64,000 nt of DNA from Vicinamibacteria bacterium (GCA_963668695.2 CAXXLQ010000004.1:608001-672000), one strand, 5' to 3'. Positions 3,379 to 63,462 are shown, counted from the first letter of the stretch. Made by a program: numbers and translations. Notes: a model not told the origin generated them from the sequence alone.

Positions 3379-4159
3379 ACAGCCGGTGGTGGAACCCGGG
3401 TGAGCGCCGAGCCCGGTGAGGCCCAGTTCTCCCGGTGGGGCCAGTTCTCCCGGTGGGGGCCCGGCTGACAAGGCGCGTGAGGGAGGAGCCCCCACCGGGA
3501 GAACTGGCCCGAGTGTATTTCGACCGAAACGCAACGATGAGCGGCGCAAAGCGGAGTGGTGAACAGCCGGTGGTGGAAGCCGCGTGAGCGCCGAGCCCGG
3601 TGAGGCCCAGTTCTCCCGGTGGGGCCAGTCCTCCCGGTGGGGCCAGTTCTCCCGGTGGGGGCCCGGTTGACAAGGCGCGTGAGGGAGGAGCCCCCACCGG
3701 GAGAACTGGCCCGAGTGTATTCCGACCGAAACGCAACGATGAGCGGCGCGCAGCGACGCGGTGAACAGCCGGTGGTGGAACCCACGTGAGCGCCGAGCCC
3801 GGTGAGGCCCAGTTCTCCCGGTGGGGCCAGTTCTCCCGGTGGGGGCCCGGCTGACAAGGCGCGCGAGGGAGGAGTCCCCACCGGGAGAACTGGCCCTGGT
3901 GTATTTCGACCGAAACGCAACGATGAGCGGCGCGAAGCGACGCGATTCAGCCGGGATGGATCGCTGGCCGAGCCCCCACCGGGAGAACTGGGCCGCGTGG
4001 GTTTCACTACCGGTTGTTTGGCCGGGATGGATCGCCGGCCGAGCCCCCACCGGGAGAACTGGGCCGCGTGGGCTCCGCCACCGGCTGTCTGGCCGGGATG
4101 GATCGCCGGGCGAGCCCCCACCGGGAGAACTGGGCCGCATGGTTTTCACCACCGGCTGT
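3379..4159. mobile_element. MITE-like family A, triple self-nested copy
   Basis: Three left termini (3379, 3563, 3765) and three right termini (4017, 4088, 4159); 13 copies of the 18-bp unit. Confidence 0.8.
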
Positions 4160-7008
4160 TAAGAAGCGCGCCGGGCCGCCGGCGCCGGCTCCAGAATCTC
4201 ACGCAGATAGCGCCCGGTCCAGGATTCGGTGTTCCGGGCCACCGCCTCCGGGGTCCCACAGACGACGACCTCGCCGCCGCGACCCCCGCCGTCGGGGCCG
4301 AGATCCACCAGGTAGTCGGCGGTCTTGATCACGTCCAGGTTGTGTTCGATCACTACCACCGTGTTCCCGGCGTCCACCAGACGGTCCAGGACCCGGAGCA
4401 GACGGGCGATGTCGTCGAAATGGAGCCCGGTGGTGGGCTCGTCGAGGATGTAGAGGGTGTCGCCGGTGGACCGCTTCGCAAGTTCGCGAGAGAGCTTGAC
4501 CCGCTGCGCCTCCCCTCCCGAAAGGGTCGGGGACGGTTGTCCCAGCCGGATGTAGCCGAGTCCCACATCCTGGAGCGTCTCGAGAATGTGCAGGATGCCG
4601 GGCTGGGACCGGAACACGGTGATGGCTTCGCTCACCGTGAGGTCGAGCACATCGGCGATGGACCGGCCCTGGTATCGAACCGTGAGCGTCTGGTCGTTGA
4701 AACGCCGTCCGCCGCACACCTGGCAGGACACGAAGACATCGGCCAGGAAGTGCATCTCCACCCGGATCATCCCGTCTCCGTGGCAGTGCTCGCAACGCCC
4801 GCCGGGCACGTTGAAGGAGAAGCGCCCCGGGCGATACCCCTGGGCGCGTGCCGCCGGCAGAGCGGCGAAGAGCAAGCGGATGCCGTCGAAAACCTTCGTG
4901 TAGGTGGCCGGGTTGGAACGCGGGGTGCGGCCGATGGGAGACTGGTCAATGTCCACCACCCTTCCGACGCGTTCCATCCCCTCGATGCGGGAGTGCGGAC
5001 CCACCGGACGCTCCGAGCGGTGGAGCGCGCGGGCGAGCGCCCGGTAGAGAACCTCGTACACGAGGGTGCTCTTGCCGGCGCCGGAGACTCCGGTCACGCA
5101 GGTGAAGGCTCCGAGCGGAATCCGGACATCCACTTCCTTCAGGTTGTTCGCGCGAGCCCCGACGATCCGGACGGAATGCGGTGCGGAGCGCCGGCGGGGC
5201 GGGACGGGGATCTCGAGATCTCCGCGGAGATAGCGTCCGGTGAGAGATTTCGGATCGTTCCGGATCTGCTCCGGAGACCCCTCGGCCACCACTTCCCCGC
5301 CGTAAACCCCAGCCCCCGGGCCGAAGTCCAGCACGTGGTCCGCGGACTCGATGGTCTCCCGGTCGTGCTCCACGACCACCACGGTGTTCCCGATGTCCCG
5401 CAGCCGATGCAGCGCTTCCAGGAGCTTCCCGTTGTCGCGTGGGTGCAGGCCGATGGACGGCTCGTCGAGGATGTAGATGACCCCCGTGAGCTCCGAGCCG
5501 ATCTGGCTGGCCAGCCGGATGCGCTGGGACTCGCCGCCCGAGAGGCTGGGCGCCAGGCGATCGAGCGAGAGGTAGCAGAGCCCCACGTCGGCGAGAAAAC
5601 GGAGCCGATTCCGGATTTCCTTGAGGAGTTCGGCGCCGATGACCAGCGCCGTGCCCTCGAGTTCGAGACTCCCCGCGAGTTCGAGAGCATCCTCGATGGC
5701 CATCGAGGAGATATCCGCGATGGTCCGGCCGCCCACCGTGACGGCGAGCGCCTCGGGACGCAAACGCGTGCCGTCACAGGCGCGGCAGGCGCGGCTCGAG
5801 AAGAAGCGCGCGTAATAGCGCCGCGCCCGGTCGGAGGAGGTTTCCCGCATCCGGCGGGTGAGCACGTTGAGCACTCCCTCCCATTGCACCGGTCGGGAAC
5901 TCTTTTGGTAATTGACGGGAATCCGCTCGCGGCCGGCGCCGGACAGCAGGATCTTCCGCTTGGCGGCGGCGAGACGCTCCCACGGGCGGTCGAGATCCAC
6001 CTCGAACCGCTTCGCCACCCCCCGAATCACCGTCGCCTCCCAGCCGTCCTTCTCGGCGAACCGGCCCCAAAACGCCACCGCGCCCTCGTTGATGCTCAGG
6101 CGCGGATCGGGGACCACGAGGTCCTCGTCCACCTCGCCGCGGGCGCCGAGGCCGTTGCACTCCTTGCACATGCCCTGGGGGCTGTTGAAGGAGAAGAGCT
6201 GCGGAGAAAGCTCGGGGAATCCGATGCCGCAGCTCGGGCAGCCGTTCTTTTCGGAGAAGACCCGGTCCCGGGACTCCCCTTCGACCGCCGCGATCACGAT
6301 GCCGTCCCCCTCGCGAAGCGCGGTCTCGACCGAATCGGTGACCCGCCCCCGCCATTCCTCGCTGACCGGCTCCTTTCGGGCCAGCCGGTCCACCACGATC
6401 TCGACGTTGTGCTTCTTTCGCTTCTCGAGGGCCTCGACTTCCTCGATGAGCTGGACCTCCCCGTCAATCCGCGCCCGGGAGAAGCCGCGGCGCAGGATGG
6501 TCTCCAGGGTGGAGCGGAACTCGCCCCGGCGGTTTTCGAGCACCGGCGCGAGGAGCAGAAACCGCGAGCCGGCCGGGAGATTCGCGAGTTCCTCGACGAT
6601 CTCCTGGGCGGTCTGCGGGCTTACCGCCCGGCCGCAGCGAGGACAGTGGGCGACCCCGACCCGGGCGAAGAGCACCCGCAGGTAGTCGGAAATCTCCGTG
6701 ATGGTCCCGACCGTGGAGCGGGGATTGTGGCTGGCCGACTTCTGATCGACCGAGATTGTCGGAGAGAGCCCCTGGATCGTGTCGTAGAGGGGCTTGTCCA
6801 TCTGCCCGAGGAACTGGCGGGCGTAGCTGGACAGCGATTCGACGTAGCGACGCTGACCTTCGGCGTAGAGGGTGTCGAGCGCCAGGGACGACTTTCCCGA
6901 CCCCGAGACCCCGCTCAGAACGACGAGGCGCTTCTTCGGAATACGAACGGTAATGTTCTTGAGATTGTGCTGCCTGGCGCCCCGCACCACGATGCGATCG
7001 GGCTCCAT
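4159..7008 (-). CDS. uvrA: Excinuclease ABC subunit A
   Basis: 'IVVRGARQHNLKN', two Walker A motifs (GVSGSGKS, GVSGAGKS), LSGGE signatures, Zn fingers. Confidence 0.98.
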   Translation of the reverse strand: MEPDRIVVRGARQHNLKNITVRIPKKRLVVLSGVSGSGKSSLALDTLYAEGQRRYVESLSSYARQFLGQMDKPLYDTIQGLSPTISVDQKSASHNPRSTVGTITEISDYLRVLFARVGVAHCPRCGRAVSPQTAQEIVEELANLPAGSRFLLLAPVLENRRGEFRSTLETILRRGFSRARIDGEVQLIEEVEALEKRKKHNVEIVVDRLARKEPVSEEWRGRVTDSVETALREGDGIVIAAVEGESRDRVFSEKNGCPSCGIGFPELSPQLFSFNSPQGMCKECNGLGARGEVDEDLVVPDPRLSINEGAVAFWGRFAEKDGWEATVIRGVAKRFEVDLDRPWERLAAAKRKILLSGAGRERIPVNYQKSSRPVQWEGVLNVLTRRMRETSSDRARRYYARFFSSRACRACDGTRLRPEALAVTVGGRTIADISSMAIEDALELAGSLELEGTALVIGAELLKEIRNRLRFLADVGLCYLSLDRLAPSLSGGESQRIRLASQIGSELTGVIYILDEPSIGLHPRDNGKLLEALHRLRDIGNTVVVVEHDRETIESADHVLDFGPGAGVYGGEVVAEGSPEQIRNDPKSLTGRYLRGDLEIPVPPRRRSAPHSVRIVGARANNLKEVDVRIPLGAFTCVTGVSGAGKSTLVYEVLYRALARALHRSERPVGPHSRIEGMERVGRVVDIDQSPIGRTPRSNPATYTKVFDGIRLLFAALPAARAQGYRPGRFSFNVPGGRCEHCHGDGMIRVEMHFLADVFVSCQVCGGRRFNDQTLTVRYQGRSIADVLDLTVSEAITVFRSQPGILHILETLQDVGLGYIRLGQPSPTLSGGEAQRVKLSRELAKRSTGDTLYILDEPTTGLHFDDIARLLRVLDRLVDAGNTVVVIEHNLDVIKTADYLVDLGPDGGGRGGEVVVCGTPEAVARNTESWTGRYLREILEPAPAARRAS

Positions 7009-7037
7009 GGACTGTTCCGGGAGTCTAAAGGTTGGGG

Positions 7038-7290
7038 GCGGCCAGTCCCCCCGGTGGGGGCCTAGCAGCGCTGGGCAGTTCTCCCGGTGGGGCCCTTCAG
7101 ACCGGCATCGCTCCCGGCAGGGGAGCGAAACTCCCAGCGCCAGTCCCCGCATGGCGCAGCCGGCAACGAGGATGGCGCAACGCAATCCCGCCCAGGAACG
7201 CCGGTCTTCAGGCCCCCACCGGGAGAACTGGCCAGCATCGCGGCCGCAGGCCGCGAAACTCCCGTCGCCAGTCCCCGCATGGACCAGCAA
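7038..7290. repeat. REP-like family B cluster carrying three 18-bp units
   Basis: GGAACGCCGGTCTTCAG..CC.GCATCGC motifs shared with 17720, 23391, 27660, 34998 and 49362. Confidence 0.6.
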
Positions 7291-7465
7291 AAACCCCAGG
7301 AACGCTGGCCCGTTCTTCCGGTGGAGGTCGGCACCGCGGCCCGACAGGGCCGCGAAACCGCGTGCCGCCCCGCGCCTGCGTGGCGGCCCTCTGAATGACG
7401 TGGGCGACACCGAAGCCCAATACACTCTTCGCTTCGTCCAACTCCGAAAGGCCCTCCCCGCACCC

Positions 7466-8398
7466 ATGCACAACTCCGCCGCCATCGGTTACGACCAGCC
7501 GCTGTTCATCCAGCCCTTCGACCACCGGGGCAGCTTCACGAAGTCCTTCTTCGGCTTCCGCGGCGCCCCGGAAATCTCTCCCGGCAGCGACCGATTCGCG
7601 CCGGTGGCGGCGGCGAAAAGCCTGATCTATCGCGGCCTCCTCCAGGCGATCGAGGGCGGCGTTCCGAAGGAGCAGGTGGGGATCCTGGTGGACGCCCAGT
7701 TCGGCAGCCAGATCCTGGCCGACGCCGACGCCCGGGGGATCCCGCGGGCGGTCTGTATCGAAAAGAGCGGCCAGCCAGTATTCGACTTCGAGTACGGCGC
7801 GGGGTGGGTGAACCACATCCGCTTTCACCGGCCGGACATCGTGAAGGTGCTGGTCCGCCTCCACCCCGACGACCCCGCGGCCGATACCGCGCAGCAACTC
7901 ACCCGGCTCAAGCTCGCGTCGGACTACCTGCACGGCCCGGAACGGCGCCTGTTCATGTTCGAGCTGCTGGTGCCGGCCACCACCGACGAGGACAAGGAAG
8001 CGGGCGCGACCTACGACCGTGACCTCCGCCCCGGCCACATGGTGCGAGCGATCCACCTGATCCAGGACTTCGGCATCGAGCCGGACATCTGGAAGATCGA
8101 GGGAGTGGACCGCGGAGAAGACGCGGAACGAGTCGCGGCGGCGGCTCGCAGCGGACCCGGCCGGGAGCGGGTCGGCTCCATCGTCCTGGGGCGCGGCTCC
8201 GATGCTGCACAGGTCCACGAGTGGCTGCGGGTAGCGGCCCCGGTGGACGGCTTCATCGGCTTCGCCGTCGGCCGCACCAACTTCCGCGAACCGCTGGGTT
8301 CGCACCTCGCCGGCCAGCTCGACGAGGCGGACGCCATCGCGCAAATCGCCGCCAACTACCGGTCCTGCGTGGACACCTGGCGCGCCGCCCGGGATTGA
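7466..8398 (+). CDS. DUF2090 / IolC-C-terminal-like aldolase-fold protein
   Basis: 'PFDHRGSF', 'GILVDAQFG', 'EKSGQ..FDFEYG', 'PDIWKIEG', 'VLGRG', 'GFAVGRT'. Confidence 0.8.
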   Translation: MHNSAAIGYDQPLFIQPFDHRGSFTKSFFGFRGAPEISPGSDRFAPVAAAKSLIYRGLLQAIEGGVPKEQVGILVDAQFGSQILADADARGIPRAVCIEKSGQPVFDFEYGAGWVNHIRFHRPDIVKVLVRLHPDDPAADTAQQLTRLKLASDYLHGPERRLFMFELLVPATTDEDKEAGATYDRDLRPGHMVRAIHLIQDFGIEPDIWKIEGVDRGEDAERVAAAARSGPGRERVGSIVLGRGSDAAQVHEWLRVAAPVDGFIGFAVGRTNFREPLGSHLAGQLDEADAIAQIAANYRSCVDTWRAARD

Positions 8399-8744
8399 GC
8401 GGCCCGGTCCAGGGACCGCGCATCCCGCTTTCTGATCACCTGACGCGCTGCCCTTCGTCGGCGCTTCCTACGTCCTAGCGGGCATCCAACGAGCAACGCT
8501 TGGTGGTTGCTGCATAGCTGGCGGCCGTCCATCCAGCGTCCTCCTTGGATACGGCAAGACAGTCATCGAGGAGCACGGCAGCCGCCTGCTCAGCACATTC
8601 ACACGGGAATTTCGCCGGTTCACACCGGAACCGAAAAAACGCGACTACCGCCAAAGCACGATCGGATCTTCGCTTTGCTCCGGGAGCGGAGGTAGTTCAG
8701 GACCTCCTGATCGCGTTCATCCGGGGTGAGCGGGGGAGGTCACC

Positions 8745-9047
8745 GTGCAGTACACGTTCTATGTCGAAATCTTGATGGTGGGCAGGGGTAAGGAAATCTC
8801 CTGGTCCGTAATGGATCCGAGCATGGGCTTCGTTGCGGAGGCAAAGACGCTGACAGATATTCTCCGGCGCGTTCAGCCCCACTACGAGCACATCGAGAAG
8901 ATTCTCAAGGAGCGCGACGGCGGTTCGACTGTCCATGTTGTGTTTGTCCCGCCTCGATACAGCATCCCCGCCCCCGGTCGCGCCGGATCGGTGCGCCCGC
9001 CGGGGTCGCTACGGATGCCCGCGGTCGACCTTGACGACCACAGTTAG
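8745..9047 (+). CDS. Hypothetical protein
   Basis: GTG start with GGGGGAGG RBS; ends 8 bp before the next ORF. Confidence 0.5.
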   Translation: MQYTFYVEILMVGRGKEISWSVMDPSMGFVAEAKTLTDILRRVQPHYEHIEKILKERDGGSTVHVVFVPPRYSIPAPGRAGSVRPPGSLRMPAVDLDDHS

Positions 9048-9055
9048 GCGGGATC

Positions 9056-9748: not shown

Positions 9749-10004
9749 CCAGCCGGAGGGACCGTGAGAACACTCCGGAATGCCCGCACCTTCGCCGAGC
9801 GGAATGAGGCTCGGATCGTGTGAATTGCGAAGACTTGCGATGGTTTGGTAGCGTGAGTAGTCCGCGCCCTGCGGGGACGGCGGGCCTCGGGAGGCCTCGG
9901 CCTCCGGCATCAATGTGCGTAATTGCACGTTTTGTCCCTTCAGTGAGGAACCGTGCCACCAAAAAGTGGCCAATGCCGCCCGTCGTCCCCGCCCGGGTGC
10001 CGGA

Positions 10005-12160: not shown

Positions 12161-12164
12161 GGAC

Positions 12165-12997: not shown

Positions 12998-13376
12998 GCA
13001 GTCCGTGGACAAGGTGGGGCGAGCACCGAGAGCGCCAGTTCTCCCGGTGGGGGCGAGGCGCCCGGCTGACAAGGCGCGCAAGGGAGGAATACCAGTGGTC
13101 TTTCGACCGAAGCGCAACGATGAGCGACGCGAAGCGGAGTGGTTCAGCCGGGATGCATCGCCGGCCGCTTCCGGAGCGGGGCGTGAGCACCGCGGAGACC
13201 CCAGAGCACGGGGGATGGAGGGCGGCAACAGCCGACTCCCATCCCTCCTACCTCGGGCTTCCGGAGCGGGGCGTGAGCACCGCGGAGACCCCGGAGCACG
13301 GGGAATGGAGGGCGGCAACAGCCGACCACCATCCCTTCTGACTCGGGAATGCCCGCTCACCTTGTTCACGGGCTGC
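12998..13376. mobile_element. MITE-like family A copy with internal 2x90-bp direct repeats
   Basis: Termini GCAGTCCGTGGACAAGG / CCTTGTTCACGGGCTGC (15/17 inverted match), TG on both flanks; direct repeats start at 13167 and 13257. Confidence 0.7.
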
Positions 13377-14396: not shown

Positions 14397-14649
14397 ACAG
14401 CCTGTAGACAAAGTCACGCGGCCCAGTTCTCCCGGTGGGGGCTCGACCGGCGATGCATCCCGCCTGAACCGCGCCGCTTCGCGTCGCTCATCGTTGCGCT
14501 TCGGTCGAAATACACTCGGGCCAGTTCTCCCGGTGGGGGCTCCTCCCTCGCGCGCCTTGTCAGTCGGGCCCCCACCGGGAGAACTGGCCCCACCGGGAGA
14601 ACTGGGCCTCACCGGTCTCGGCACTCGCGTCACTTTATCCACAGGCTGT
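14397..14649. mobile_element. MITE-like family A copy
   Basis: ACAGCCTGTAGACAAAGT...ACTTTATCCACAGGCTGT; four 18-bp units. Confidence 0.8.
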
Positions 14650-16520: not shown

Positions 16521-16525
16521 CTCTA

Positions 16526-16724
16526 GCAGCCTATGGTGGAACCCGGGCGGCGTTCGAGCAGCGATGCATCCCGGCTGAACCGCGCCGCTTTGCGGCGCTC
16601 GGCGTTGCGTTTCGGTCGAAATACACTCGGGCCAGTTCTCCCGGTGGGGGCTCCTCCCTCACGCGCCTTGTCAGCCGGGCACCTCCCCGCTCTCGGCACT
16701 CACCCGGGTTCCACCACCGGCTGC
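16526..16724. mobile_element. MITE-like family A copy (one 18-bp unit)
   Basis: TA|GCAGCCTATGGTGGAACCCGGG...CCCGGGTTCCACCACCGGCTGC. Confidence 0.8.
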
Positions 16725-16747
16725 CAAGACTAACCAAAAGGATTTTC

Positions 16748-17719: not shown

Positions 17720-17995
17720 GGGAACGCCGGTCTTCAGGCCGGTGAGGCGGCGCGCAGGGCCGCAAGACCGCGGATCGCCGACCGCGAAGAAGCGCGGGGA
17801 CGGCTTGGAACGCCGACCTCTGGGCAGTTCTCCCGGTGGGGCCCGGCCCAGCGGCCCGCAGGGACGCGGCGGCGAAGACCCCGAACAACAGGATGGTTCC
17901 CGTCTCAGCGCGAACCCCCGCTAGCTGGGCAGCACCGTGACAGCGGGAACGCCGATCTCTGGCTAGTCGTCCCGGTGGGGGCCAGCATCGCGCGC
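17720..17995. repeat. REP-like family B cluster with 18-bp unit variants
   Basis: GGAACGCCG.. motifs at about 17721, 17807 and 17946. Confidence 0.55.
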
Positions 17996-22172: not shown

Positions 22173-22390
22173 ACAGCCTGTGGCAAAACCCACACGGCGT
22201 TCGACCGGCGATCCATCCCGGCTGAACCGCGTCGCTGCGCGCCGCTCATCGTTGCGTTTCGGTCGAAATACACCCGGGCCAGTTCTCCCGGTGGGGGCTC
22301 CTCCCTCACGCGCCTTGTCAGCCGGGCGCCTCGCCGGCCAGTTCTCCCGGTGGGGGCCTCGGCGCTCACGTGGGTTTCACCACAGGCTGT
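22173..22390. mobile_element. MITE-like family A copy
   Basis: TA|ACAGCCTGTGG...CCACAGGCTGT|TA. Confidence 0.82.
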
Positions 22391-23128: not shown

Positions 23129-23554
23129 GCGGAGAGGCTGGCGTTCTTGGCAAACTTTGTCAAACCGCGGAGAATGTGCGGCGAAGAGCCGCCCCGAGCA
23201 GCATGGATGGGCGCGGCATCCACCCAGCACCGGGGCCGCCGTTTGGCGCCGGATGTCTGGATGCCGGTCCCCACCGGGAGAAACACCCATGATCGGGTCC
23301 GCCTGTTCACCCCGCCCGCATGAAAAGGTGGTGCGGCACTCACGTTGGCAGGGCCCGGCGTCATCGGCACAGGTTTCGCGCTCCCGCGCGATGCCGACCG
23401 GAGGTCGGCGTTCCCGTGCCTGCACGACACCCTTTCCCCGGGGATATGTGCCGAGACCTGCACCATCCTGGAAGTGAGCGACATGCAGGTTTCGACCGCC
23501 TCTCGGCGGTCGATGCCGGTCTGAAGGCCCCTACCGGGAGAACCGGCCAGCGCT

Positions 23555-27554: not shown

Positions 27555-27737
27555 TGGTTCGGGCTATCCAGGCAGATTGGTTCCGGCGGTGCTGCGGCCG
27601 GGGGTGAACTCGCCGTCCCCGCATACGTCCGGGCCGTAATCGAGAGTAGCCGGGTGGGTCTCGCGGCCTTCGGCCGCGATGCCGGTCAGAGACCGGCCCA
27701 GTTCTCCCGGTGGGGGTTCCGCTGTCGCGCGCCCTTA

Positions 27738-27853
27738 ACAGCCTGTGGTGAAGCCCCGGCGGCGTTCGAGCGGCGATGCATCCCGGCTGAACCGCCCCCC
27801 CACCGGGAGAACTGGCCGCTCTCGGCGCTCACCCGGGTTCCACCACCGGCTGT
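27738..27853. mobile_element. MITE-like family A, internally deleted copy
   Basis: TTAA at both junctions; adjacent REP-like family B copy at 27660-27720. Confidence 0.78.
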
Positions 27854-33828: not shown

Positions 33829-33924
33829 CAGCGAGATCCCGGAAATAGGTTGAAGGGCAACCACCACCCGTCGGCGCGGTCACGCCCCGAAGTATCCCAG
33901 CCCCGGCGTCAATCCGCGTCGTTA

Positions 33925-34380
33925 ACAGCCTGTGGTGAAACCCGCGTGAGCGCCGAGAGCGGCCAGTTCTCCCGGTGGGGGCGAGGCGCCCGGCTGGCAA
34001 GGCGCGTGAGGGAGGAGCCCCCACCGGGAGAACTGGCCCGAGTGTATTTCGACCGAAACGCAACGCAGAGCGCCGCGAAGCGCCAGTTCTCCCGGTGGGG
34101 GGGCGGTTCAGCCGGGATGCATCGCCGGTCGAACGCCGCGTGGGTTTTGCCACAGGCTGTTAACAGCCTCTGGTGGAACCCGGGTGAGCGCCGAGAGCGG
34201 CCAGTTCTCCCGGTGGGGGCGAGGCGCCCGCCTGACAAGGCGCGTGAGGGAGGAGCCCCCACCGGGAGAACTGGCCCGAGTGTATTTCGACCGAAACGCA
34301 ACGAAGAGCGCCGCAAAGCGGCGCGGTTCAGGCGGGATGCATCGCCGGTCGAACGCCGCGTGGGTTTTGCCACAGGCTGT
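33925..34380. mobile_element. Two tandem MITE-like family A copies sharing a TA (33925-34160, 34163-34380)
   Basis: Junction CACAGGCTGT-TA-ACAGCC. Confidence 0.82.
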
Positions 34381-34494: not shown

Positions 34495-34998
34495 ATGCAG
34501 AGCGTACTGACGCAACCGACGGTCAAGGTCGCCCAGCCGGAGTCCGGCCAGGACGTGTTCCGCGGCCAGATGAAGGTCATGCATCGGACGCTGAAAGTGG
34601 TCACGGATTCGCGCGTGGAACTGCACAACATCAGCGACCGCGTACGCGACCAGGTCCGGGATTCGGGCATCAAGGCCGGTTTCCTCATCCTCTCGACGCT
34701 TCACACCACGACCGCGCTTTTCCTGAACGAATTCCAGGCGGCCCTGATGGCCGACCTCACCGAGTGCCTCGAGCGGCTCGTGGACACCGAGGACGGTTAC
34801 CTCCACAACTGCGAAGACTGTTCCGATTGCGAGCGGAAGAATGCTGACGCGCACCTCCGCGCGGCGCTGCTCGGTCACAACGTGACCGTTCCGATCCACG
34901 AGGGAGAGATCAGCCTCGGACAGTGGCAGAGCATCCTCTTCGCGGAACTCGACGGGCCGCGCCAGCGGACGGTCACCGCTCACCTGATCGGAGTCTAG
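34495..34998 (+). CDS. yjbQ: YjbQ (UPF0047) family protein
   Basis: 'HTTTAL..NE', 'Y.HN', 'NADAHL', 'LGQWQ.I.F.ELDGPR.R'; AAGGAG RBS. Confidence 0.88.
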   Translation: MQSVLTQPTVKVAQPESGQDVFRGQMKVMHRTLKVVTDSRVELHNISDRVRDQVRDSGIKAGFLILSTLHTTTALFLNEFQAALMADLTECLERLVDTEDGYLHNCEDCSDCERKNADAHLRAALLGHNVTVPIHEGEISLGQWQSILFAELDGPRQRTVTAHLIGV

Positions 34999-35120
34999 GA
35001 ACGCCGGTCTCCAGACCGGCATCGCCGCCCGGAGGGCGGCGAGATCCCCGACGTCAGCCTCACCGATAGCTCCTGACCCCGCTACCGGGAACACGGCTCG
35101 GACAACACCGGATAGAGCCT

Positions 35121-35839: not shown

Positions 35840-37808
35840 ATGAAGAGACTCCAAGCAGCCTGTGAACAAAGTCACGCGGCCCAGTTCTCCCGGTGGGGAC
35901 TTGAGCGGCGATCCATCCCGGCTGGCCCCCACCGGGAGAACTGGCCGCCCCGCTTCGCGTGGCTCATCGTTGCGCTTCGGTCGGAATACACCAGGTATTC
36001 GTCCCTCGCACGCCTTGTCAGCCGGGCGCCTCGCCCCCACCGGGAGAATTGGCGCTCTCGGCGCTCTCGCCACTTTGTCCACAGGCTGCTAACCCTCCTG
36101 GCCGTCGCGGGCGTCGCCCCGACGGGCCTCGCCTGCGGCCCCTCCGGGCCGGCCGCCGATGCGATCTACCGCAATGCGAAAGTGGTAACCGCCGACGACG
36201 ACTTCAACATCGCCGAGGCTTTCGCGGTGGTGGATGGACGGTTCGCGGCGGTGGGCTCGGAGGAGGCAGTCGAGGAAGCCTTTCCCGGCGGCGCCGCGGA
36301 GGTCGTGGATCTCCAGGGGAAGACGGTCCTTCCGGGGTTCAACGACAACCACATCCACCTCGGCCCCGGCCGGGCCCTGCAGCGCTGGGAAGACGGGCTG
36401 GTACCCGGACTGCCGGAATGGTCGGCGGAGGCGACCGAGCCGGACGAGCTCTTCGCCGCGCTGGAGGCGGAGGCAGCTACGAGGTCGCCGGGCGAGTGGA
36501 TTCGCGGCGGGCTCACCCGGATGGACTGGCCGAACAGCCGGATCCCGGACCGCTGGCTCCTGGACGAGGCCGCCCCCGACAACCCGGTGATGCTCACCCG
36601 CGGGCCCCACACCTACTTGCTGAACTCACCGGCGCTGCAACTCGCGGGAATCGACCGCAACACGCCCGACCCGGAGGGGGGCTGGATCTTCCGCGACGCG
36701 AACGGCGAACCGACCGGCCGCGTCCTCGAAGCGGCGCGCCGGATCGTGGATCGAGTCCTTCCCCCGGCGCCGGAAGTCCCCTACGAGAGGGGCATCGAGA
36801 CCATGCGCGCGACGCTGGGCAAGCTGGCCGCCATGGGGATCACCAGCGTGAACATCGCCGGGGTCCGGCCGAGGGGGATTCCGGCGGTGCGGGACCTCTA
36901 CGCCCGCTACGGCGAGGAGCTACCGCGGGCGACGATGCAGGTGCGCCTGAGCCCCGGCCACGACACCTACGACGACCCGGAGGAAGGGATACGGCGCGAG
37001 ACCCAAGCGCTCGAAGAACTCGGCTTCGTTACCGGCGAGGGGGACTCCCGTTTCCGGGTCGGCGCGGTGAAGATGAGCATTGACGGCGGCCTGAGCGCTC
37101 CGGTGTTCTGGTCGCTCGAGCCCTACGAGGGCCGGCCCGACTTCTTCGGCGCCATCCGCATCCCGGCCGAGGTCTTCCATCCGGTCGCGAAAGCGAGCCC
37201 ACGAACTCGGCTGGCAGCTCGGCATCCACACCATGGGCGACGGCGCCGTGAAGATGGTGGCGGAAGCGATGGCCCGCATCCTGGACGAAATCCCCCGCGA
37301 GGACCACCGGCACTACCTGCACCACGTGGCGGTCAAACCACCCGCGGACACCATCGCGCTCATGGCGGAGCACGGCATCATGGTGGCGAGCCAGCCGTCC
37401 TTCACCGTGGGGCTCGGCGCCTACGCCGAGGAGGCGCTCACCGCCGAACGGGAAGCAACCCAGAATCCGACCCGTTCCCTGCTCGACGCCGGAGTTCGCG
37501 TCTCCCACGGCTCCGACTCGGCGCCTTACGGGCCGCTGATCACGATCTGGACCGCGGTCACCCGGCGGGGCTTCGACGGCGAGGTGCACGGGCCGGAAGA
37601 AGCGGTCAGCATCGAGGAAGCGATCCGCCTGCACACCCGGGAGCCGGCCTTCTTCACCTTCGAAGAGAGCGAGAAGGGCACCATCGCCGAGGGCATGTTG
37701 GCCGACTTCATCGTGCTGTCCGACGACATTCTCACGGTCCCGGTGGACGACATCCGCGACCTGCGGGTCGAGCGAACGTTCATCGGCGGCCGGGAGGTCA
37801 AGCCGTAA
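35840..37808 (+). pseudogene. Amidohydrolase-3 (YtcJ-like) lipoprotein with in-frame MITE in the signal peptide and a +1 frameshift
   Basis: 'DLQGKTVLPGFNDNHIH', 'K..IDG', 'HGSDS', 'KGTI..G.LADF'. An extra A at 37190-37192 separates 'PVAK' from 'RAHELGWQLGIHTMGD'. May be a sequencing error. Confidence 0.75.
35855..36089. mobile_element. MITE-like family A copy inside a coding region
   Basis: GCAGCCTGTG...CACAGGCTGC; 235 bp plus 2 bp = 79 codons, frame open. Confidence 0.85.
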
Positions 37809-43576: not shown

Positions 43577-43793
43577 ACAGCCTATGGGCAAGGTGGCGCG
43601 AGCGCCGAGGCCAGTGAGGCCCAGTTCTCCCGGTGGGGCCAGTTCTCCCGGTGGGGGCCCGGCTGACAAGGCGCGCGAGGAAGGAATACCGAGCGTATTT
43701 CGACCGAAGCGCAACGATGAGCGACGCGAAACGGAGTGGTTCAGCCGGGATGCATCGCCGGTCAAACGCCGCGTGACTTTGTCCATAGGCTGC
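43577..43793. mobile_element. MITE-like family A copy
   Basis: TA|ACAGCCTATGG...CCATAGGCTGC|TA. Confidence 0.82.
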
Positions 43794-50391: not shown

Positions 50392-50609
50392 GCAGCCTGT
50401 AGACAGAGTCTCGTGGCGTTCGAGCGGCGTTGCATCCCGGCTGAACCGCCCCGCTTCGCGTGGCTCATCGTTGCGCTTCGGTCGAAATACACCCGGTATG
50501 CCTCCCTCGCGCGCCTTGTCAGCCGGACCCCCACCGGGAGAACTGGGCCTCGCCCCCACCGGGAGGACTGGCCGCTCTCGGCGCTCACGCCACTCTGTCC
50601 ACAGGCTGC
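50392..50609. mobile_element. MITE-like family A copy
   Basis: GCAGCCTGTAGACAGAGT...ACTCTGTCCACAGGCTGC. Confidence 0.8.
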
Positions 50610-56006: not shown

Positions 56007-56086
56007 CCCGTCGAGCGGTCCCCGGGCGGGGCCACCGGTGCCGTCGAGAGTTGGCACCCGTGGTCTTTGGTTGCGTTCGGGCCCCG

Positions 56087-57007: not shown

Positions 57008-57011
57008 ACCG

Positions 57012-57554: not shown

Positions 57555-57559
57555 CGTTA

Positions 57560-57830
57560 ACAGCCTGTGGTGAAGCCCGCGTGAGCGCCGAGAGCGGGGA
57601 GGCCCAGTTCTCCCGGTGGGGCCAGTCCTCCCGGTGGGGGCCCGGCTGACAAGGCGCGTGAGGGAGGAGCCCCCACCGGGAGAACTGGCCCGAGTGTATT
57701 TCGACCGAAACGCAACGCAGAGCGCCGCAAAGCGCCAGTTCTCCCGGTGGGGGGGCGGTTCAGGCGGGATGGATCGCCGCTCGAGCCCCCACCGGGAGAA
57801 CTGGGCCGCGTGGGTTTTGCCACAGGCTGT
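57560..57830. mobile_element. MITE-like family A copy
   Basis: TTAA at both junctions; five 18-bp units. Confidence 0.85.
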
Positions 57831-58765
57831 TAACCATCCGTAGTCGCGACGGGAGTCGATCGGAGCGGCGCCGGCCTTTCGCCGACCCGTCGCAGGAGCG
57901 CGGCGAGCGCTCCCTCGGTCACCGGAGACACTGCGGAAGATTCGGGGCCCTCGCCGGTGTCGCGGACCTCGACGAGCGTATGACCAGCCGAACGCAGGAC
58001 GTCCGCGGCCACCGTCGCGCCATCCCCCCAGACCACAACGGGATGCCTCCCGCTTTGTGTCGCACGCCGAACCGCGAGCGCCGGCGGTTCCGGATCCAGC
58101 GCGGCGCGGAGTTTCATTCGAAAACCCGTAAGGCGCCGGCCCGAAGCGGCGGCGAATACAAAGTGGCGGCGGTGCAGCAGTAGCAGCAGCCGCCGGCCCG
58201 CATCGCTCGAGAAGCGCGCGAGCCACTCCGGAAGTACCGCGAGGCTGGTGGCGTCCACCCACCGGACCCGGAGACCGGCCGCCTCAACGGCCGCCTCATA
58301 CTGCTGGACAACCGGGGATCCCGTCACCGCCCCCAGCACGGAGCGGCGTCCGCGGGAACCCGAAGTCAGCGTTCCGAAACGGAACCGCCCGTCGAGTTTG
58401 TGGAGTTCGGGACCTGAACTTGCGGTCAAACCACGGACCAATTCGCTGCGCAGCTTGCGTACGGCTCGCGATCCGGCGACCTCAGACAGCGCGGCATGGG
58501 CAGCGCGATCGGGCAACGCGATCACGGCGTCAGCGAATCTGCTGCCCGGTGAAGCAAGAGTGCCGAGAGCGGCTCGGACCGCCCGGGCCGCCTCCACCGA
58601 CGAGCCCAGGTTCGGCTCGGTTGGCGAGGGAGTCAGCAAGTCCCCGGGCAGGCGCCAGGTGATCCAGCGACCATCACTGGTTCGAACGAGAACGTGATCT
58701 CGCCGAAACGCCATCGCCACGGCCTGCCGTCGAGGACCGAGGGGAGGAAAGGAGAGCAGGGACAA
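57830..58765 (-). CDS. PilM-like (actin-like fold) protein
   Basis: 'L.PS..EPN', 'IALPD', 'V.QYE...EAAGL....VD..SLA'. Start uncertain. Confidence 0.6.
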   Translation of the reverse strand: MSLLSFPPLGPRRQAVAMAFRRDHVLVRTSDGRWITWRLPGDLLTPSPTEPNLGSSVEAARAVRAALGTLASPGSRFADAVIALPDRAAHAALSEVAGSRAVRKLRSELVRGLTASSGPELHKLDGRFRFGTLTSGSRGRRSVLGAVTGSPVVQQYEAAVEAAGLRVRWVDATSLAVLPEWLARFSSDAGRRLLLLLHRRHFVFAAASGRRLTGFRMKLRAALDPEPPALAVRRATQSGRHPVVVWGDGATVAADVLRSAGHTLVEVRDTGEGPESSAVSPVTEGALAALLRRVGERPAPLRSTPVATTDG

Positions 58766-58795
58766 GACGCGGGCCGTTGGGACGGATTCAGCCTA

Positions 58796-59049
58796 GCAGC
58801 CGGTGGTGAAACCCACGCGGCGTTCGACCGGCGATCCATCCCGGCTGAACCACTCCGCTTCGCTGCGTTCTGCGTTGCGTTTCGGTCGAAATACACCCGG
58901 GCCAGTTCTCCCGGTGGGGGCTCCTCCCTCACGCGCCTTGTCAGCCGGGCCCCCACCGGGAGGACTGGCCCCACCGGGAGAACTGGGCCTCGCCCCCACC
59001 GGGAGAACTGGCCGCTCTCGGCGCTCACCCGGGTTCCACCACCGGCTGC
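58796..59049. mobile_element. MITE-like family A copy
   Basis: CTAG at both junctions. Confidence 0.85.
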
Positions 59050-59051
59050 TA

Positions 59052-60191
59052 GTGTGGTGTCCCGCAAATGGCGATGATAATATGGGGTCCTCCCAGGAGG
59101 TCCCCATGCCGAAAGGACGCCCCCTGTCGCCACTCGTCCTCGATGAGGAACAGCGAGGCCAACTGATGGCCCTGTCCCGATCCACCTCCATGCCCCACGG
59201 ACTGGTGCAGCGGGCGCGGCTGATTCTCGCGAGCGCCGAAGGCCTCTCCAACCAGGCGGTGGCGGAACGCGTCGGCCTCACGCCCAACGTCGTGGGGAAG
59301 TGGCGACGCCGCTTCCGGGAGGCCGGGGTCACCGGCCTCCACGACGAACTCCGCCCGGGACGGCCGCGCACCTACAGCGACGAGAAAGTGGCGACGCTCA
59401 TCCACCATGCCCTCCAGGAAGAGCCCGACAATGCCACCCATTGGAGCGTGCGCTCCATGGCGGACGCGCAGGGAGTCTCCAAGAGCACGGTGCAGCGCTG
59501 GTTCACCCTGTGCGGCGTCAAGCCGCACCTGACCCGGACCTTCAAGCTCTCTACCGACCCCTTCTTCATCGAGAAAGTCCGGGACATCGTGGGGCTCTAC
59601 CTCCATCCACCGGACAACGCCATGGTCCTCTGCGTGGACGAAAAGTCCCAGATCCAGGCCTTGAACCGCACCCAGCGAGCCTTGCCCCTGGGCCTGGGCT
59701 ATGTCGAGGGCTACACCCACGACTACCTCCGCCACGGCACCACCACCCTCTTCGCCGCCCTGGATGCCGCCACCGGAAAGGTCATCGCTCGCTGCCGCCA
59801 GCGGCACCGCCATCAGGAGTTCCTCGACTTCCTGCGTCTCATCGACCGCGAAACTCCGGGAGATCTTGACCTCCACCTGGTGGTCGACAACTACGCCACC
59901 CACAAACACCCCAAGGTCCGCGCCTGGCTGGCCCGCCGACCTCGTTTCCACCTCCACTTCACCCCGACCTATGCCTCCTGGCTCAACCAGGTGGAGCGCT
60001 GGTTCGGACTCATCAGCCAGCAGGCCATCAAGCGCGGCAGTTTCCAAAGCGTCACCCAGTTGAAGCAGACGATCATGGCTTTCACCGACCAATACAACCA
60101 CAACTCCACCCCCTTCGTCTGGGTCGCCACCGCACAATCCATCCTGGAGAAGCTGGAACGACTAGCAACTCGTATTTACAGGACACCACAC
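59052..60191 (+). mobile_element. IS630-family insertion sequence
   Basis: TIR GTGTGGTGTCCYGYAAAT (16/18), TA duplication at 59050-59051 and 60192-60193. Confidence 0.92.
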
Positions 60192-60194
60192 TAG
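59106..60194 (+). CDS. IS630-family transposase
   Basis: '[10 protein letters not shown]', 'HDY.RHGT', 'VVDNYATHK', '[16 protein letters not shown]'; CAGGAGG RBS; stop codon uses the target TA. Confidence 0.95.
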
Positions 60195-60272
60195 CAGCCG
60201 GTGGACAAAGTGACGTGAGCGCCGAGGCCCCCACCGGGAGAACTGGGCCGCGTGACTTTGTCTACCGGCGGC
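60194..60272. mobile_element. Minimal MITE-like family A copy (ends plus one 18-bp unit)
   Basis: GCAGCCGGTGGACAAAGT...ACTTTGTCTACCGGCGGC. Confidence 0.7.
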
Positions 60273-60588
60273 TGGCGCCAGCGACGATACAGGCCGCAGA
60301 GGGCGCGCGATACGGCATCTCGTCGACGCGGCAACAACGGGATGGACGGTCTCGACGCACGTCCCACCGACTGTCGAAACCCGTCGGTTTTCAACGCCCC
60401 ACAGTAGAAGAGATCGCCAATTCCGGACTTGGTATCCGGTGGTAGGATGAGTGATCGGGCTGCGGGCAGCGTCCGCCCGTGCGAACCAGCGCGGCGGCCG
60501 TTTTCCCGCTTGATTACCGTTCGAACGAGTTCCAGCGCTTCGACAACTGTCGCAGATCGTTCGGTATCCGGTCGCAAAACCGGGATCC

Positions 60589-60621
60589 GAACGAGCCCTG
60601 AACGAGCCCTGAACGAGCCCT
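60589..60621. repeat. 3 x GAACGAGCCCT tandem repeat
   Basis: Perfect 11-bp units about 40 bp upstream of the EF-G-like gene. Confidence 0.85.
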
Positions 60622-60663
60622 GGTTCGGAGCGATTCCCTAACGAGGCCACAACCTGGAGAAGC

Positions 60664-62730
60664 ATGCGCGACTATCAGACCGCCGAACTTCGCACTCTCG
60701 CCGTGGCCGGACATGGAACGTCCGGCAAGACAACGCTCGTCTCGGCGCTCCTCTACGCCGCCAGCGCGGTAACCCGCCTCGCCCGTGTCGAAGATGGGAA
60801 CACGACGACCGACTTTGACGAGGACGAGATCGAACGCGGCATCAGCCTGAGTGCGGCGCCAACCCATTTCGACTGGGGCGGCACCAAAATTAATCTGCTG
60901 GACACGCCGGGTTACAGCAACTTCCTCACCGAGGCGAAACTGGCCATGCCCGTCGTCGACACCGCCCTCATTTCGGTGTGCGCGGTGGATGGAGTGGGCG
61001 TCAACACGGAACGGGTCTGGGGTTTCGCGGAGGAAAACCGCGCGGCGGCCATCTTTGCCATCAACCGCATGGATCGCGACCGAGCGTCGTTCGAGCGCAC
61101 CCTGAGCGCGATCCAGGAGTCCTTCGGGCGCACCGCCATCCCTGTCCAGTTGCCCATCGGAAACGAGGCCGGCTTTTCGGGAGTCGTGGACCTCATCGCG
61201 TTAAAGGCAATCACGGGTCCCGGGCCGGACGGGAAGGGAGCGAAGACCGGCGACGTACCAGCCGAGCTGATGGAGCAGGTTGAGACGGCTCGCAACGAAC
61301 TCATGGAACTGATCGCCGAATCGGACGAGGAACTCCTGGACCAGTTCTTTTCGGAGGGAGAGTTGACGCCGGAGCAAATGATCCGGGGCCTGCGAACGGC
61401 AGTGGCCGCCCGTTTGATCTTCCCGGTGACAGTGGTATCGGGGGCCCAAAACCTGGGAACCACGGCGCTCCTCGATTTGATCGTTGCGGCCACTCCCGAC
61501 CCCGCCGGGCGGGGACCAGCCCGTGGAGTGAGCGGGGATGGCGAGCCGGTGGAACGCGACGTTGACGGCTCCGCACCCGCCAGCGTCTACGTGTTCAAGA
61601 CCATCGCCGACCCCTTCGCGGGGCGGCTCAGCCTGTTCCGGGTCATGACCGGAACCCTGGGTCCCGACACCCAACTCAGGAACCTGACGACCGGCGGCGC
61701 GGGGCGGACTGGCGGCTTGAACGTCGTGAACGGGAAGGCCTTGGATCCGGTGTCGAAGCTGTCGGCAGGCGATCTCGGCTGTTTCGCCAAGCTGCGGGAA
61801 ACATTCACCGGGGACACGCTGGCCTCGGACGATGGGATCCGCTTCGTGCGCCCCGAGGCGCCCCATCCGGTCATCAGCTTCGCAATCGAACCCAAGTCCC
61901 GGGGAGATGAGGAAAAGATCTCTCAGGCGCTCCAGCGGCTTCGCGAGGAGGATCTGACACTGAGATTCGACCGCGACCAGGAACTGCTCCTCTCGGGTAC
62001 CGGGCAGCTCCACATCGAGGTGGTGGTATCCCGGCTGAAGCGAAAGTTCGGAGTCGAAGTCGAGTTGAAGCCTCCGCGGGTGCCGTATCGCGAGACGATC
62101 GCCGTAACCGCCGAGGCCCACGGGCGTCACAAGAAGCAGACCGGTGGTCATGGCCAGTTCGCCGACTGCCGCGTGCGCGTCGAGCCGATCGAACGAGGCA
62201 AGGACTTCGAGTTCGTGAGCAAGATCGTCGGCGGCGCCATCCCGCGCCAGTTCATCTCGGCCATCGAGAAGGGATTTCAAGACGCCCGACAAAAGGGGTA
62301 TCTGGCGGGTTACCCCGTCGTGGACTTCCGGGCAACGGTGTTCGACGGCAAGTTCCACGCCGTCGATTCGTCAGAGATCGCGTTCAGGATCGCGGCGTCC
62401 CTCGCGTTCAAGGACGCCATGGCCAAGTGCCGGCCGACGCTCCTGGAGCCGATCATGTCCGTCGTGATCACCGTTCCCGACGACAACACCGGGGACGTTC
62501 TCGGCGATCTGAACGCCCGCCGGGGCCGGACGCAGGGCATGGACCGGAAGGGCTCGCAAACCGCGATCACGGCACAGGTCCCTATGGCCGAAATGCTCAC
62601 TTACGAGCCGACCCTGACCTCCCTGACCGGGGGACGGGGGGGCTTCCAAATGGAATTCTCCCATTACGACCCCGTCCCCTCGAATCTGGCGAAGTCGTTG
62701 ATCGACGCCTACCAGACGCGTAACGACTGA
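60664..62730 (+). CDS. Elongation factor G paralog (EF-G2-like)
   Basis: 'GHGTSGKTT', 'ERGIS', 'DTPG', 'NRMD', 'KKQTGGHGQF', 'H.VDSSE.AF'; non-canonical G1 motif. Confidence 0.9.
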   Translation: MRDYQTAELRTLAVAGHGTSGKTTLVSALLYAASAVTRLARVEDGNTTTDFDEDEIERGISLSAAPTHFDWGGTKINLLDTPGYSNFLTEAKLAMPVVDTALISVCAVDGVGVNTERVWGFAEENRAAAIFAINRMDRDRASFERTLSAIQESFGRTAIPVQLPIGNEAGFSGVVDLIALKAITGPGPDGKGAKTGDVPAELMEQVETARNELMELIAESDEELLDQFFSEGELTPEQMIRGLRTAVAARLIFPVTVVSGAQNLGTTALLDLIVAATPDPAGRGPARGVSGDGEPVERDVDGSAPASVYVFKTIADPFAGRLSLFRVMTGTLGPDTQLRNLTTGGAGRTGGLNVVNGKALDPVSKLSAGDLGCFAKLRETFTGDTLASDDGIRFVRPEAPHPVISFAIEPKSRGDEEKISQALQRLREEDLTLRFDRDQELLLSGTGQLHIEVVVSRLKRKFGVEVELKPPRVPYRETIAVTAEAHGRHKKQTGGHGQFADCRVRVEPIERGKDFEFVSKIVGGAIPRQFISAIEKGFQDARQKGYLAGYPVVDFRATVFDGKFHAVDSSEIAFRIAASLAFKDAMAKCRPTLLEPIMSVVITVPDDNTGDVLGDLNARRGRTQGMDRKGSQTAITAQVPMAEMLTYEPTLTSLTGGRGGFQMEFSHYDPVPSNLAKSLIDAYQTRND

Positions 62731-62927
62731 TCCCCTCGGGGACGCGCGTCCGGTCCGGCGCGCTGATCCGCGGCTGCCGTAATGCGCTCCGCGGGAGGGC
62801 ACTTCCGCGCATCTCGTCGGCCTCGGAGGTCGTTGCTCCCGCTTCCCGATCCCGGCTCAGGGATCGCGGCGGGAGGCGCGCATGCTTCCCGGAACCACCC
62901 CCGTGGTACCGGGGGGCGGGGTGTTTA

Positions 62928-63462
62928 GCAGCCCCTGGACAAAGTCATGCGGCCCAGTTCCCCCGCTGGGGGCCTCGCCGCTCACACCCCCGGTTCCACA
63001 GGCTCCTAGCAGCCTGTGGCAAAACCCACGCGGCGTTCGACGGGCGATGCATCCCGCCCAAACAGCCGGTGATGAAACCCACGCGGCCCAGTTCTCCCGG
63101 TGGGGGCTCGGCCAGCGATCCATCCCGTCTGAACCGCGTCGCTTCGCGCCGCTCATCGTTGCGTTTCGGTCGGAATACACTCGGGCCAGTTCTCCCGGTG
63201 GGGGCTCCTCCCTCACGCGCCTTGTCAGTCGGGCGCCTCCCCGGCCTCGGCGCTCACGTGGGTTCCACCACCGGCTGTTCACCGCCCCGCTTCGCGGGGC
63301 TCTGCGTTGCGCTTCGGTCGAAATACACCCGGGCCAGTTCTCCCGGTGGGGGCTCCTCCCTCGCGCGCCTTGTCAGCCGGGCCCCCACCGGGAGGACTGG
63401 CCCCACCGGGAGAACTGGGCCTCGCCCGTCTCGGCGCTCACGCAGGTTTCACCACAGGCTCC
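62928..63462. mobile_element. Family A cluster: minimal copy 62928-63006 plus nested pair (outer 63009-63462, inner 63062-63278)
   Basis: Shared TA at 63007-63008; nesting junctions mirror those at 3379-4159. Confidence 0.8.

Follow-up and report, generated by a model that had tools for sequence, protein, structure and literature searches.

Small dispersed repeats (SDRs) were reportedly described in Nostocaceae cyanobacteria, as SDR1–8, by Elhai et al. in 2008 (Genome Res 18:1484); they are said to measure 21–27 nt, and an RNA route is said to have been proposed for them. The spread of such ~20-base words in bacterial genomes has been an open question since the cyanobacterial SDRs were described, and we know of no mechanism for it. 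According to published texts, SDR5 sits precisely at a fixed position inside HIP1 (PMC4390886), and SDRs are confined to one lineage (PMC5861425). Here, we describe an 18-nt word, U (CCCCACCGGGAGAACTGG), in a 64,000-nt stretch of DNA (the window, G000:C4:608001-672000) from a bacterium of the Vicinamibacteria, phylum Acidobacteriota. Among known systems, U appears closest to the SDRs, a likeness judged from descriptions of SDRs and not from their sequences. By those descriptions, SDRs resemble U in being high-copy, dispersed words of ~20 nt that occur singly or in tandem at fixed positions inside other repeats, in being found in one lineage only, and in being suspected of mobility with no known enzyme. 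U likewise occupies fixed positions in repeats, is present or absent at orthologous sequence, and belongs to one coherent lineage. It differs in its phylum, in its size (18–20 nt, just under the range given for SDRs), in having no evident self-hairpin, and in that no reverse transcriptase was found in its host genome, whereas an RNA route is said to have been proposed for SDRs. The original prediction, made from the sequence alone, had put U forward as a candidate for an undescribed system; an object of the same kind therefore has a precedent. The feature itself is confirmed as real, and the mechanism-level reading is less firm than the observation.

The genome holding the window (G000) has a 4.10-Mb assembly in four contigs (C1–C4) with 67.5% G+C, and it was compared with other genomes, numbered G001–G018. 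The window contains 45 exact copies of U (shuffle expectation, 0.00) and 58 copies when up to 3 mismatches are allowed (0.18 expected from shuffles), in both orientations and in tandem runs of 2 and 3, for example a triple at 3607-3660; these figures agree with the predicted 55–60 copies, degenerate ones included, standing singly or as 2–3 tandem units. Across G000, U occurs exactly 1,288 times and, counting copies with as many as 2 mismatches, 1,631 times; A13G (156 copies) is the one variant that is common. They are arranged as 1,336 single, 140 double, and 2 triple runs, together with one run of 4 and one of 5, and are grouped in 612 islands, of which 270 hold a single copy. Mean identity per base is 99.2% for U (816 copies) compared with 88.7% for the backbone of its principal carrier repeat. 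Direct reading bore out that U is not palindromic and is free of stop codons in all six frames; its internal complementarity extends over at most 3 bp, or 5 bp counting the GGC/GCC flanks, and neither U nor its complement contains a GTAG or CGTC tetranucleotide. Convergent pairs of U able to form hairpins number 227 among the 1,232 exact copies on C4. No replichore orientation bias of U was observed (Fisher p = 0.36). Separately, C1 and C3 carry copies 100% identical to stretches of C4 (C1:39416-40516 = C4:393900-395000; C3:8283-9742 = C4:3513198-3514657). As 56 of the 1,288 exact copies of U lie on C1 and C3, the duplicated stretches slightly inflate the genome-wide counts; they may also be the source of a 9.3% "contamination" figure.

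The principal carrier of U is a miniature inverted-repeat transposable element (MITE). With U deleted in silico, its backbone measures ~190 bp, its ends pair over ~25 bp, and it folds into one long hairpin. Using the first of two head-to-tail copies at window 33921-34375 as the backbone reference, BLAST retrieved 813 pieces in G000, covering each position ~600–660 times and including 418 copies near full length, and the U-carrying MITE is present in ~650 copies. Close relatives differ in whether an entire MITE copy is found at a given orthologous site; therefore, the carrier behaves as an active MITE that has moved recently. No transposase of an autonomous parent was seen between MITE ends 0.5–6 kb apart, where the enclosed frames, which were not run against Pfam, are ordinary-looking reading frames or the stretches are duplicated contig pieces. 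The second carrier, unrelated to the MITE, is a palindrome resembling repetitive extragenic palindromic (REP) sequences, GCCGGTCT..AGACCGGC with a GGAAC flank, and U, pointing either way, lies at the centre of this palindrome or next to it. Among 1,478 U sites, both flanks are repeated in 1,315 (89%), one flank in 140, and neither in 23, the last being mostly degenerate members of the same repeat families. Across the two families, U has at least 10 different positions and stands in both orientations. While the carrier has the terminal pairing and whole-copy presence/absence of a MITE, U, at 18 nt, falls below the ~50–500 bp of such elements and has neither inverted ends nor a duplication. It is a sharply bounded unit of its own, and its size, well below that of MITEs, is as had been suggested.

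Within the MITE, U is concentrated at five main sites, beyond which a few rare positions occur. Strand, occupancy among the 418 near-full copies, and the empty and filled alleles at each site are as follows.

s42, minus strand: filled in 129/418; empty TC[A/G/C]C^CG, filled TCGC-U-C-CG
s49, minus strand: filled in 148 or 149/418 (58 single, 90 double, one run of 5); for the single, empty GGGC, filled GGAC-U
s80, plus strand: filled in 192/418; empty GGAAT^ACC, filled GGAGC-U-CCC
s126, minus strand: filled in 47/418; empty GT, TC or GC, filled CC-U
s160, plus strand: filled in 180/418; empty GAAC^GCC, filled GAGC-U-GCC

Occupancy of these sites is almost combinatorial: 40 patterns were found, 102 of the 418 copies are fully empty, and pairwise correlations range from -0.04 to 0.40. 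Double units are nearly confined to s49, 79 of the doubles consist of an A13G copy followed by a canonical one, and the s49 double is the sole clean insertion among the main-site alleles. When 60 natural U-free copies were folded as DNA, four of the five sites fell within paired stretches and s49 at a stem edge; a structural rule for acceptor sites was dropped, since the folded MITEs gave no common loop or centre position.

U is not the only difference between filled and empty alleles. Genome-wide, 196 outer-flank site classes with an empty counterpart could be compared (1,029 filled runs and 2,071 empty sites). In 176 of them, 1–3 flank bases are replaced between the filled and empty forms, and in 152 the filled form has GC as its 5' dinucleotide; over all U runs in G000, this dinucleotide is GC in 1,217 of 1,480, which matches the earlier remark that the two bases 5' of U often read GC where empty sites differ. 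Because the 5' GC nearly always accompanies U, the latter is in practice a 20-base unit. The net gain per class is 18 bp in 113 classes, 19 bp in 52, 15–17 bp in 14, 21 bp in 1, and 36 bp in 16 double-unit classes, and no target duplication was seen over the 196 classes, again as predicted. At the five main sites, the state of U is associated with the 1–3 adjoining bases with Cramer's V of ~0.5 to 0.99, and a few bases away V is mostly ~0.05–0.2, except around s126. All four pairs of filled and empty sites that had first suggested insertion were recovered: GGGC^GCCTC, filled twice at 14570-14605 and empty at 63231-63240; AACCGCC(C)^CGCTT, filled at 57735-57752 and empty at 50443-50458; CACGCGGC^GYTCG, filled at 63088-63105 and empty at 58814-58826; and GGAAC^GCCGGTCT, filled at 27698-27715 and empty at 34998. 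The proposed insertion behaviour thus holds as presence/absence at several positions of at least two families, but the insertions are not clean. The replaced flanks point to a templated patch and not to cut-and-paste insertion.

Comparison with relatives demonstrated that orthologous repeat copies that stay in place gain or lose U. G001 and G004 are ~91–96% identical to G000 and collinear with it in the window region. An automated pass over ~480 kb of G001 anchored 42 merged pairs of islands; 19 aligned at ≥85% identity, and the 23 below this cut were dropped. Over the 5,235 columns of these 19 pairs, which hold 231 substitutions, 11 indels consist cleanly of U alone; the unit is in G000 in 8 of them and in G001 in 3, and all 11 show the usual flank change of their site. 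Likewise, a 390-bp island at 62900-63290 differs between G000 and G001 by three U-only changes, one unit being specific to G001 and two to G000, against 2 substitutions, and each change carries the flank alteration usual for that site. Beyond these 1–3 flank bases, single-unit changes between orthologs have no other difference nearby, with one exception, a G001 versus G000 difference accompanied by several nearby changes in the manner of a conversion tract.

U was also found in unique DNA. At G000:C4:394434, it lies in frame (PHRENW) within an 833-codon open frame matching the AcrB/AcrD/AcrF family (E = 5.5e-168), so that the earlier statement that U is restricted to intergenic DNA and repeats, apart from copies carried into one gene by the MITE, does not hold. 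GC plus U stands there in G000 and G001 in place of two bases, a net gain of 18 bp, whereas eight aligned genus genomes (G008, G004, G013, G007, G002, G012, G010, and G006) have CG or TG and no U, and match lengths in six further genus genomes are consistent with the empty form. The gene has no paralog with U at that place. Other candidate sites were less clear. C4:452414 and C4:1898241 proved to be degenerate REP-like contexts and were rejected as unique-DNA insertions, as was C4:2611741, a native look-alike at the end of a coding-like frame, where G014 reads CCACCGGGAGGAG; in the G004 ortholog of this site, a 12-nt piece of the U-like word is tandemly duplicated. C4:2597724, a further candidate, is without a usable ortholog. 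At C4:1220078, a U-like 18-mer with 2 mismatches lies in frame after an apparent signal peptide in an open frame; being common to G001 and G008, this word is an older insertion or else native sequence resembling U.

The 18-mer is widely but unevenly distributed among relatives. It is present in all 15 other genus genomes searched, with from 5–6 up to 631 exact copies each, and in two further genera of the same family (G018, 220 copies; G016, 4 copies), making 17 of 18 genomes of the family, and it was absent from 12 genomes of two sister families. The exact word in G018 sits within diverged backbones. U and the MITE do not rise and fall together, as a comparison of MITE loop motifs (up to 1 mismatch) with exact U illustrates.

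G000: 611 loop motifs, 1,288 U
G004: 419 loop motifs, 631 U
G008: 367 loop motifs, 525 U
G001: 289 loop motifs, 564 U
G010 (2 contigs): 92 loop motifs, 6 U
G007: 49 loop motifs, 5 U
G012: 31 loop motifs, 6 U

U is therefore not an obligatory part of the MITE, and some relatives hold the MITE nearly U-free; in the U-poor genomes, U mostly adjoins REP-like palindromes or occupies the loop of a GC-rich hairpin. Public genomes matching U are metagenome-assembled genomes (MAGs) of Acidobacteriota/Vicinamibacteria in many separate records, several labelled "Candidatus Marinacidobacterium", and the runs holding the window are labelled sponge metagenomes. Outside this lineage, matches are single and stray, including ones in Actinobacteria and other MAGs; these fit chance, because ~17 exact matches are expected in 596 Gb at equal base use. 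A single stray match was found in a viral contig set, and no Rfam family reached its gathering score in the window. The original prediction had named a library adapter or missing read support as what would overturn it, and this concern is largely countered. In contigs from Logan, which end at the repeats, the U-carrying repeats pile up to 70–500 times the depth of neighbouring unique DNA in 4 runs from 4 studies, which makes an assembly artefact unlikely. With U present in every genus genome searched and in many separate MAG records, and with its positions conserved between orthologous loci, we regard an adapter, primer, or assembly error as a negligible prospect.

In the interpretation we favour, which in our judgement stands about evenly between right and wrong, U belongs among very small dispersed repeats, is copied as a unit in its own right, and is written as a short templated patch. 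A copy of U would be written into a new place by replacing 1–3 target bases, leaving no target duplication and adding 18 or 19 bp. The acceptors would mostly be GC-rich, hairpin-forming repeats, namely the five main MITE sites and several sites in the REP-like palindrome, and occasionally unique DNA. After entry, U would be multiplied passively by transposition of its host repeat, and short-patch conversion between repeat copies would switch it on or off. The route we consider most plausible is copy-choice or template switching, or alternatively short-patch repair, in either case with GC-rich microhomology as the primer where hairpins stall the DNA, and with a U-binding protein as a possible helper; the copy-choice route would need no special enzyme. 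At the AcrB-family site, for example, the observed junction would result if synthesis left the target at ..CCCG, used a donor to copy GC-U-CGG, and returned to the target at CGGG, and G000 contains 18 such GC-U-CGG donors. The occurrence of one signature at many unrelated positions and in a unique gene, the single-unit changes between orthologs, and the U-poor MITEs together favour templated copying of U. More tentatively, and with doubts that outweigh our confidence, a dedicated templated-insertion machinery may move U with its 5' GC as a 20-nt piece, writing the word into hairpin DNA and replacing 1–3 bases. If so, no DNA unit smaller than U would be known to be actively mobilised, and U would represent a natural writer of short patches, acting in genomes in which no reverse transcriptase, RAYT, or TnpB was found.

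Several observations weigh against templated copying. Each site has its own fixed filled allele, and the s49 single changes in the other direction (GGGC to GGAC), which is exactly what conversion of old alleles between paralogs predicts. Most sites have repeats on both flanks (1,315 of 1,478), and a single clean insertion into unique DNA was found, the other four unique-looking sites being degenerate repeats, old, or native look-alikes. Associations between backbone variants are also low (mean V of 0.43 at 1 bp and 0.15–0.2 beyond 10 bp); the MITE family is thus strongly reticulate, and free assortment of U sites needs, taken alone, no mobility of U. Furthermore, no enzyme was found when G000 was searched for Y1_Tnp/RAYT, RVT_1, and TnpB, each U-only change may be a gain or a loss, and the spread of this one word alone is left unexplained. 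The main competing account, possible but in our view improbable, turns on these points and holds that U is a conserved internal part of an old repeat superfamily, such as a protein-binding or structural piece, with no mobility of its own. Ectopic gene conversion would have reshuffled two old alleles per site among the ~650 copies, and MITE transposition would have multiplied them. The site-specific and invariant alleles, including the odd s49 single, fit this account, as do the low association across the whole backbone, the concentration of sites inside repeats, the frequent gain and loss of whole MITEs between relatives, and the one tract-like difference between G001 and G000. Conversion between paralogs nevertheless fails to explain the AcrB-family gene, which has no filled paralog as a donor. 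It is also at odds with at least 10 positions in two orientations and two families that mostly share the same 5' GC signature, with ortholog changes that otherwise have no differences nearby despite ~11% backbone divergence, with the 92 MITE loop motifs accompanied by 6 U in G010, and with a word far more uniform than its carriers.

A different kind of explanation invokes selection or drive on the word itself. Uptake sequences (DNA uptake sequences, DUS; uptake signal sequences, USS) occur in thousands of copies on both strands, are conserved at the family level, and frequently form inverted pairs. U resembles them in copy number, strand distribution, lineage conservation, and inverted pairs, and it could be a host binding site, for a DNA-uptake receptor or a nucleoid or terminator factor, favoured in the same way. 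The exact conservation across two genera, the more than 1,000 copies on both strands with no replichore bias, the hairpin-capable convergent pairs on C4, and the tolerance of U in frame in a gene are all compatible with this. However, species of one genus range from 5–6 to 1,288 copies of the identical word, the copies are nearly confined to repeats and not spread through genes, and they arise as blocks, in patches of 18–20 bp, and not by point changes of similar words. We therefore hold a selected word to be unlikely.

Repeats associated with transposases were also considered. According to Bertels and Rainey (2011, PMC3116915), REP/REPIN-RAYT systems comprise an over-represented short word, often in hairpin-forming inverted pairs, and Di Nocera et al. 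(2013, PMC3733652) give REP repeats a GTAG or CGTC tag at one end. In such systems the repeat is an imperfect palindrome of about 20–40 nt, stands mainly in inverted doublets, and flanks a single-copy RAYT (Y1_Tnp) gene. U shares with them intergenic clusters and mosaics and a word better conserved than its surroundings, but it is neither palindromic nor tagged, its ortholog-variable unit is a single 18-mer and not a doublet, and 270 of its 612 islands are singletons. Profile searches of G000 gave no match to Y1_Tnp/RAYT (PF01797) or to the RVT_1 reverse transcriptase and a sub-threshold scrap for the TnpB zinc ribbon. Y1_Tnp (RAYT/IS200-like) genes are present in 12 of 13 other genus genomes searched, and the REP-like palindrome family may be their partner; no Y1_Tnp match was obtained in the U-rich G000, G004, and G018, and U lay near 1 of 4 Y1_Tnp loci inspected in relatives. 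The single IS110-family copy in G000 (C4:~482100-483900) encodes a 415-aa DEDD transposase and interrupts a REP-like palindrome at its centre, GCCGACCGGAGGTC^...AAGGTCCGGCG, with the same junctions in G004; the closest copies of U are found outside the element, at distances of ~100 and 200 bp. Close IS110 relatives number 6–7 copies each in G004 and G008, and none was found in G001, although 564 U occur there. The IS110 copy was rejected as unrelated to U, and its close relatives do not track U abundance. More generally, U might be the target, end, or footprint of an IS110 element or the REP of a RAYT (HUH) enzyme, and the placement of the IS110 copy where U sits in other REP-like copies, along with the Y1_Tnp genes of the genus, gives some reason to consider this. 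No half-U flanks the IS110 copy, though, and its ends are unlike U; with no Y1/HUH gene found in G000, no close IS110 copy found in G001, U near 1 of 4 Y1_Tnp loci, no tag, and no orientation bias, a transposase by-product is very improbable. The earlier suggestion that U is left behind when an IS110- or HUH-type element excises is not borne out, nor is the idea that U serves as the target of one.

Mosaic repeats offer a further comparison. Bacterial interspersed mosaic elements (BIMEs) of E. coli and the intergenic mosaic elements (NIMEs) of Neisseria, built of dRS3 and RS units, are mosaic intergenic repeats. U recalls them in combining a short conserved repeat with a limited module set in variable order and number, as in U-53 nt-U and U-7 nt-U; it differs from their modules as described in that U alone appears and disappears at fixed points of a continuous backbone, and once in a gene. 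BIME and palindromic unit (PU) mosaic repeats are mentioned in PMC2884548. In G000, arrays of U plus a 53-nt unit (71-bp period) comprise 109 adjacent pairs genome-wide and are seen in the window at 3974-4133, and U-GCCTCGC-U (25-bp period) occurs 84 times. The commonest exact form of the 53-nt interval between direct copies of U was found 13 times, and three such stretches from the window proved nearly identical to one another; apparently copies of one repeat unit, they lack the unique spacers of a clustered regularly interspaced short palindromic repeat (CRISPR) array. Membership in the REPIN-RAYT, MITE, uptake-sequence, IS110-target, and CRISPR classes each fails on at least one defining feature tested.

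U appears to be among the smallest DNA units that spread on their own, and its lineage offers a data set of ~1,300 near-identical copies at a few defined acceptor sites with filled and empty alleles, complete close-relative genomes that differ at single sites, and sister species with the MITE and almost no U. This makes the mechanism, the direction of change, and any co-travelling gene directly testable, and the replaced flanks already constrain the mechanism. In practical terms, the U-carrying repeats break short-read assemblies of these sponge-associated bacteria. The U-bearing features of the window, with U starts followed by their strand where assigned, are listed below.

3380..4160: array of three ~190–200-bp MITE-type units and three 71-bp units with 13 U, starting at 3423, 3441, 3490, 3607, 3625 (1 mismatch), 3643, 3692, 3809, 3827, 3876, 3974, 4045, and 4116
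7042..7326: REP-like cluster with U at 7042 (2 mismatches), 7075 (1 mismatch), 7214, and 7309 (3 mismatches)
13035..13052, minus strand: U at s42 of a MITE copy
14398..14646: MITE with four U, at 14423 (minus), 14521 (minus), 14570 (plus), and 14588 (plus)
16523..16734: MITE with one U, at 16632 (minus)
17824..17980, minus strand: two degenerate U, at 17824 (1 mismatch) and 17963 (3 mismatches)
22279..22355, minus strand: two U 59 bp apart
23529..23546, plus strand: degenerate U with 2 mismatches
27680..27815: REP-like palindrome followed by a MITE fragment, with one U (27698, minus) immediately beyond the right arm of the palindrome and another (27798, plus) in the fragment
33921..34375: two head-to-tail MITEs with five U, at 33963 (minus), 34019 (plus), 34083 (minus), 34201 (minus), and 34257 (plus)
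34998..35050: REP-like palindrome without U (empty site)
35881..36052: MITE with three U, at 35881 (minus), 35927 (plus), and 36035 (plus, 1 mismatch)
43621..43656, minus strand: double U in a MITE
50443..50571, plus strand: right half of a MITE, with s126 empty (50443-50458), single U at s49 (50529), U at s42 (50554, 1 mismatch), and spacer GCCTCGC
57604..57804: MITE with five U, at 57604 (minus), 57622 (minus, 1 mismatch), 57671 (plus), 57735 (minus), and 57787 (plus)
58814..59011: MITE with s160 empty (58814-58826) and four U, at 58902 (minus), 58951 (plus, 1 mismatch), 58969 (plus), and 58994 (plus)
60229..60246, plus strand: single U
62954..63418: island with six U, at 62954 (minus, 2 mismatches), 63088 (minus), 63186 (minus), 63334 (minus), 63383 (plus, 1 mismatch), and 63401 (plus), and empty sites at 63029-63045 and 63231-63240

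Several of these loci differ from their orthologs by whole carriers. G004 and G001 lack the entire array of 3380..4160 at the corresponding position, the element at 16523..16734 is wholly absent from the orthologous site in G004, G001, and G008, and both MITEs of 33921..34375 are absent from the same three genomes. The MITE at 43621..43656 is missing at this spot in G004 and G001, where another MITE lies ~300 bp away. At other loci, the carrier remains and the units vary. The MITE near 13000 has s126 empty in G000 and G004 and filled in G008, while that at 14398..14646 is unchanged in G004, has neither the s49 double nor the 14423 (s160) unit in G001, and is wholly missing from G008. The G004 ortholog of the 50529 unit has no U and reads GGGC, compared with GGAC in G000. 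At the orthologous REP-like palindrome near 27680, U lies outside the right arm in G000 and G004 and in the opposite orientation at the palindrome centre in G001. At 7075, the G001 ortholog has no U; the two sequences differ there by 19 bp, and the flanks are altered. In the G001 ortholog of the neighbouring copy at 7214, a 21-nt segment lies within U, after its second base, and a near-identical segment precedes a truncated U, beside a MITE end, at C4:311969, C4:793856, and C1:7623 of G000. With 3 copies in G000, the segment was rejected as a second large family; it may be a nested small insert.

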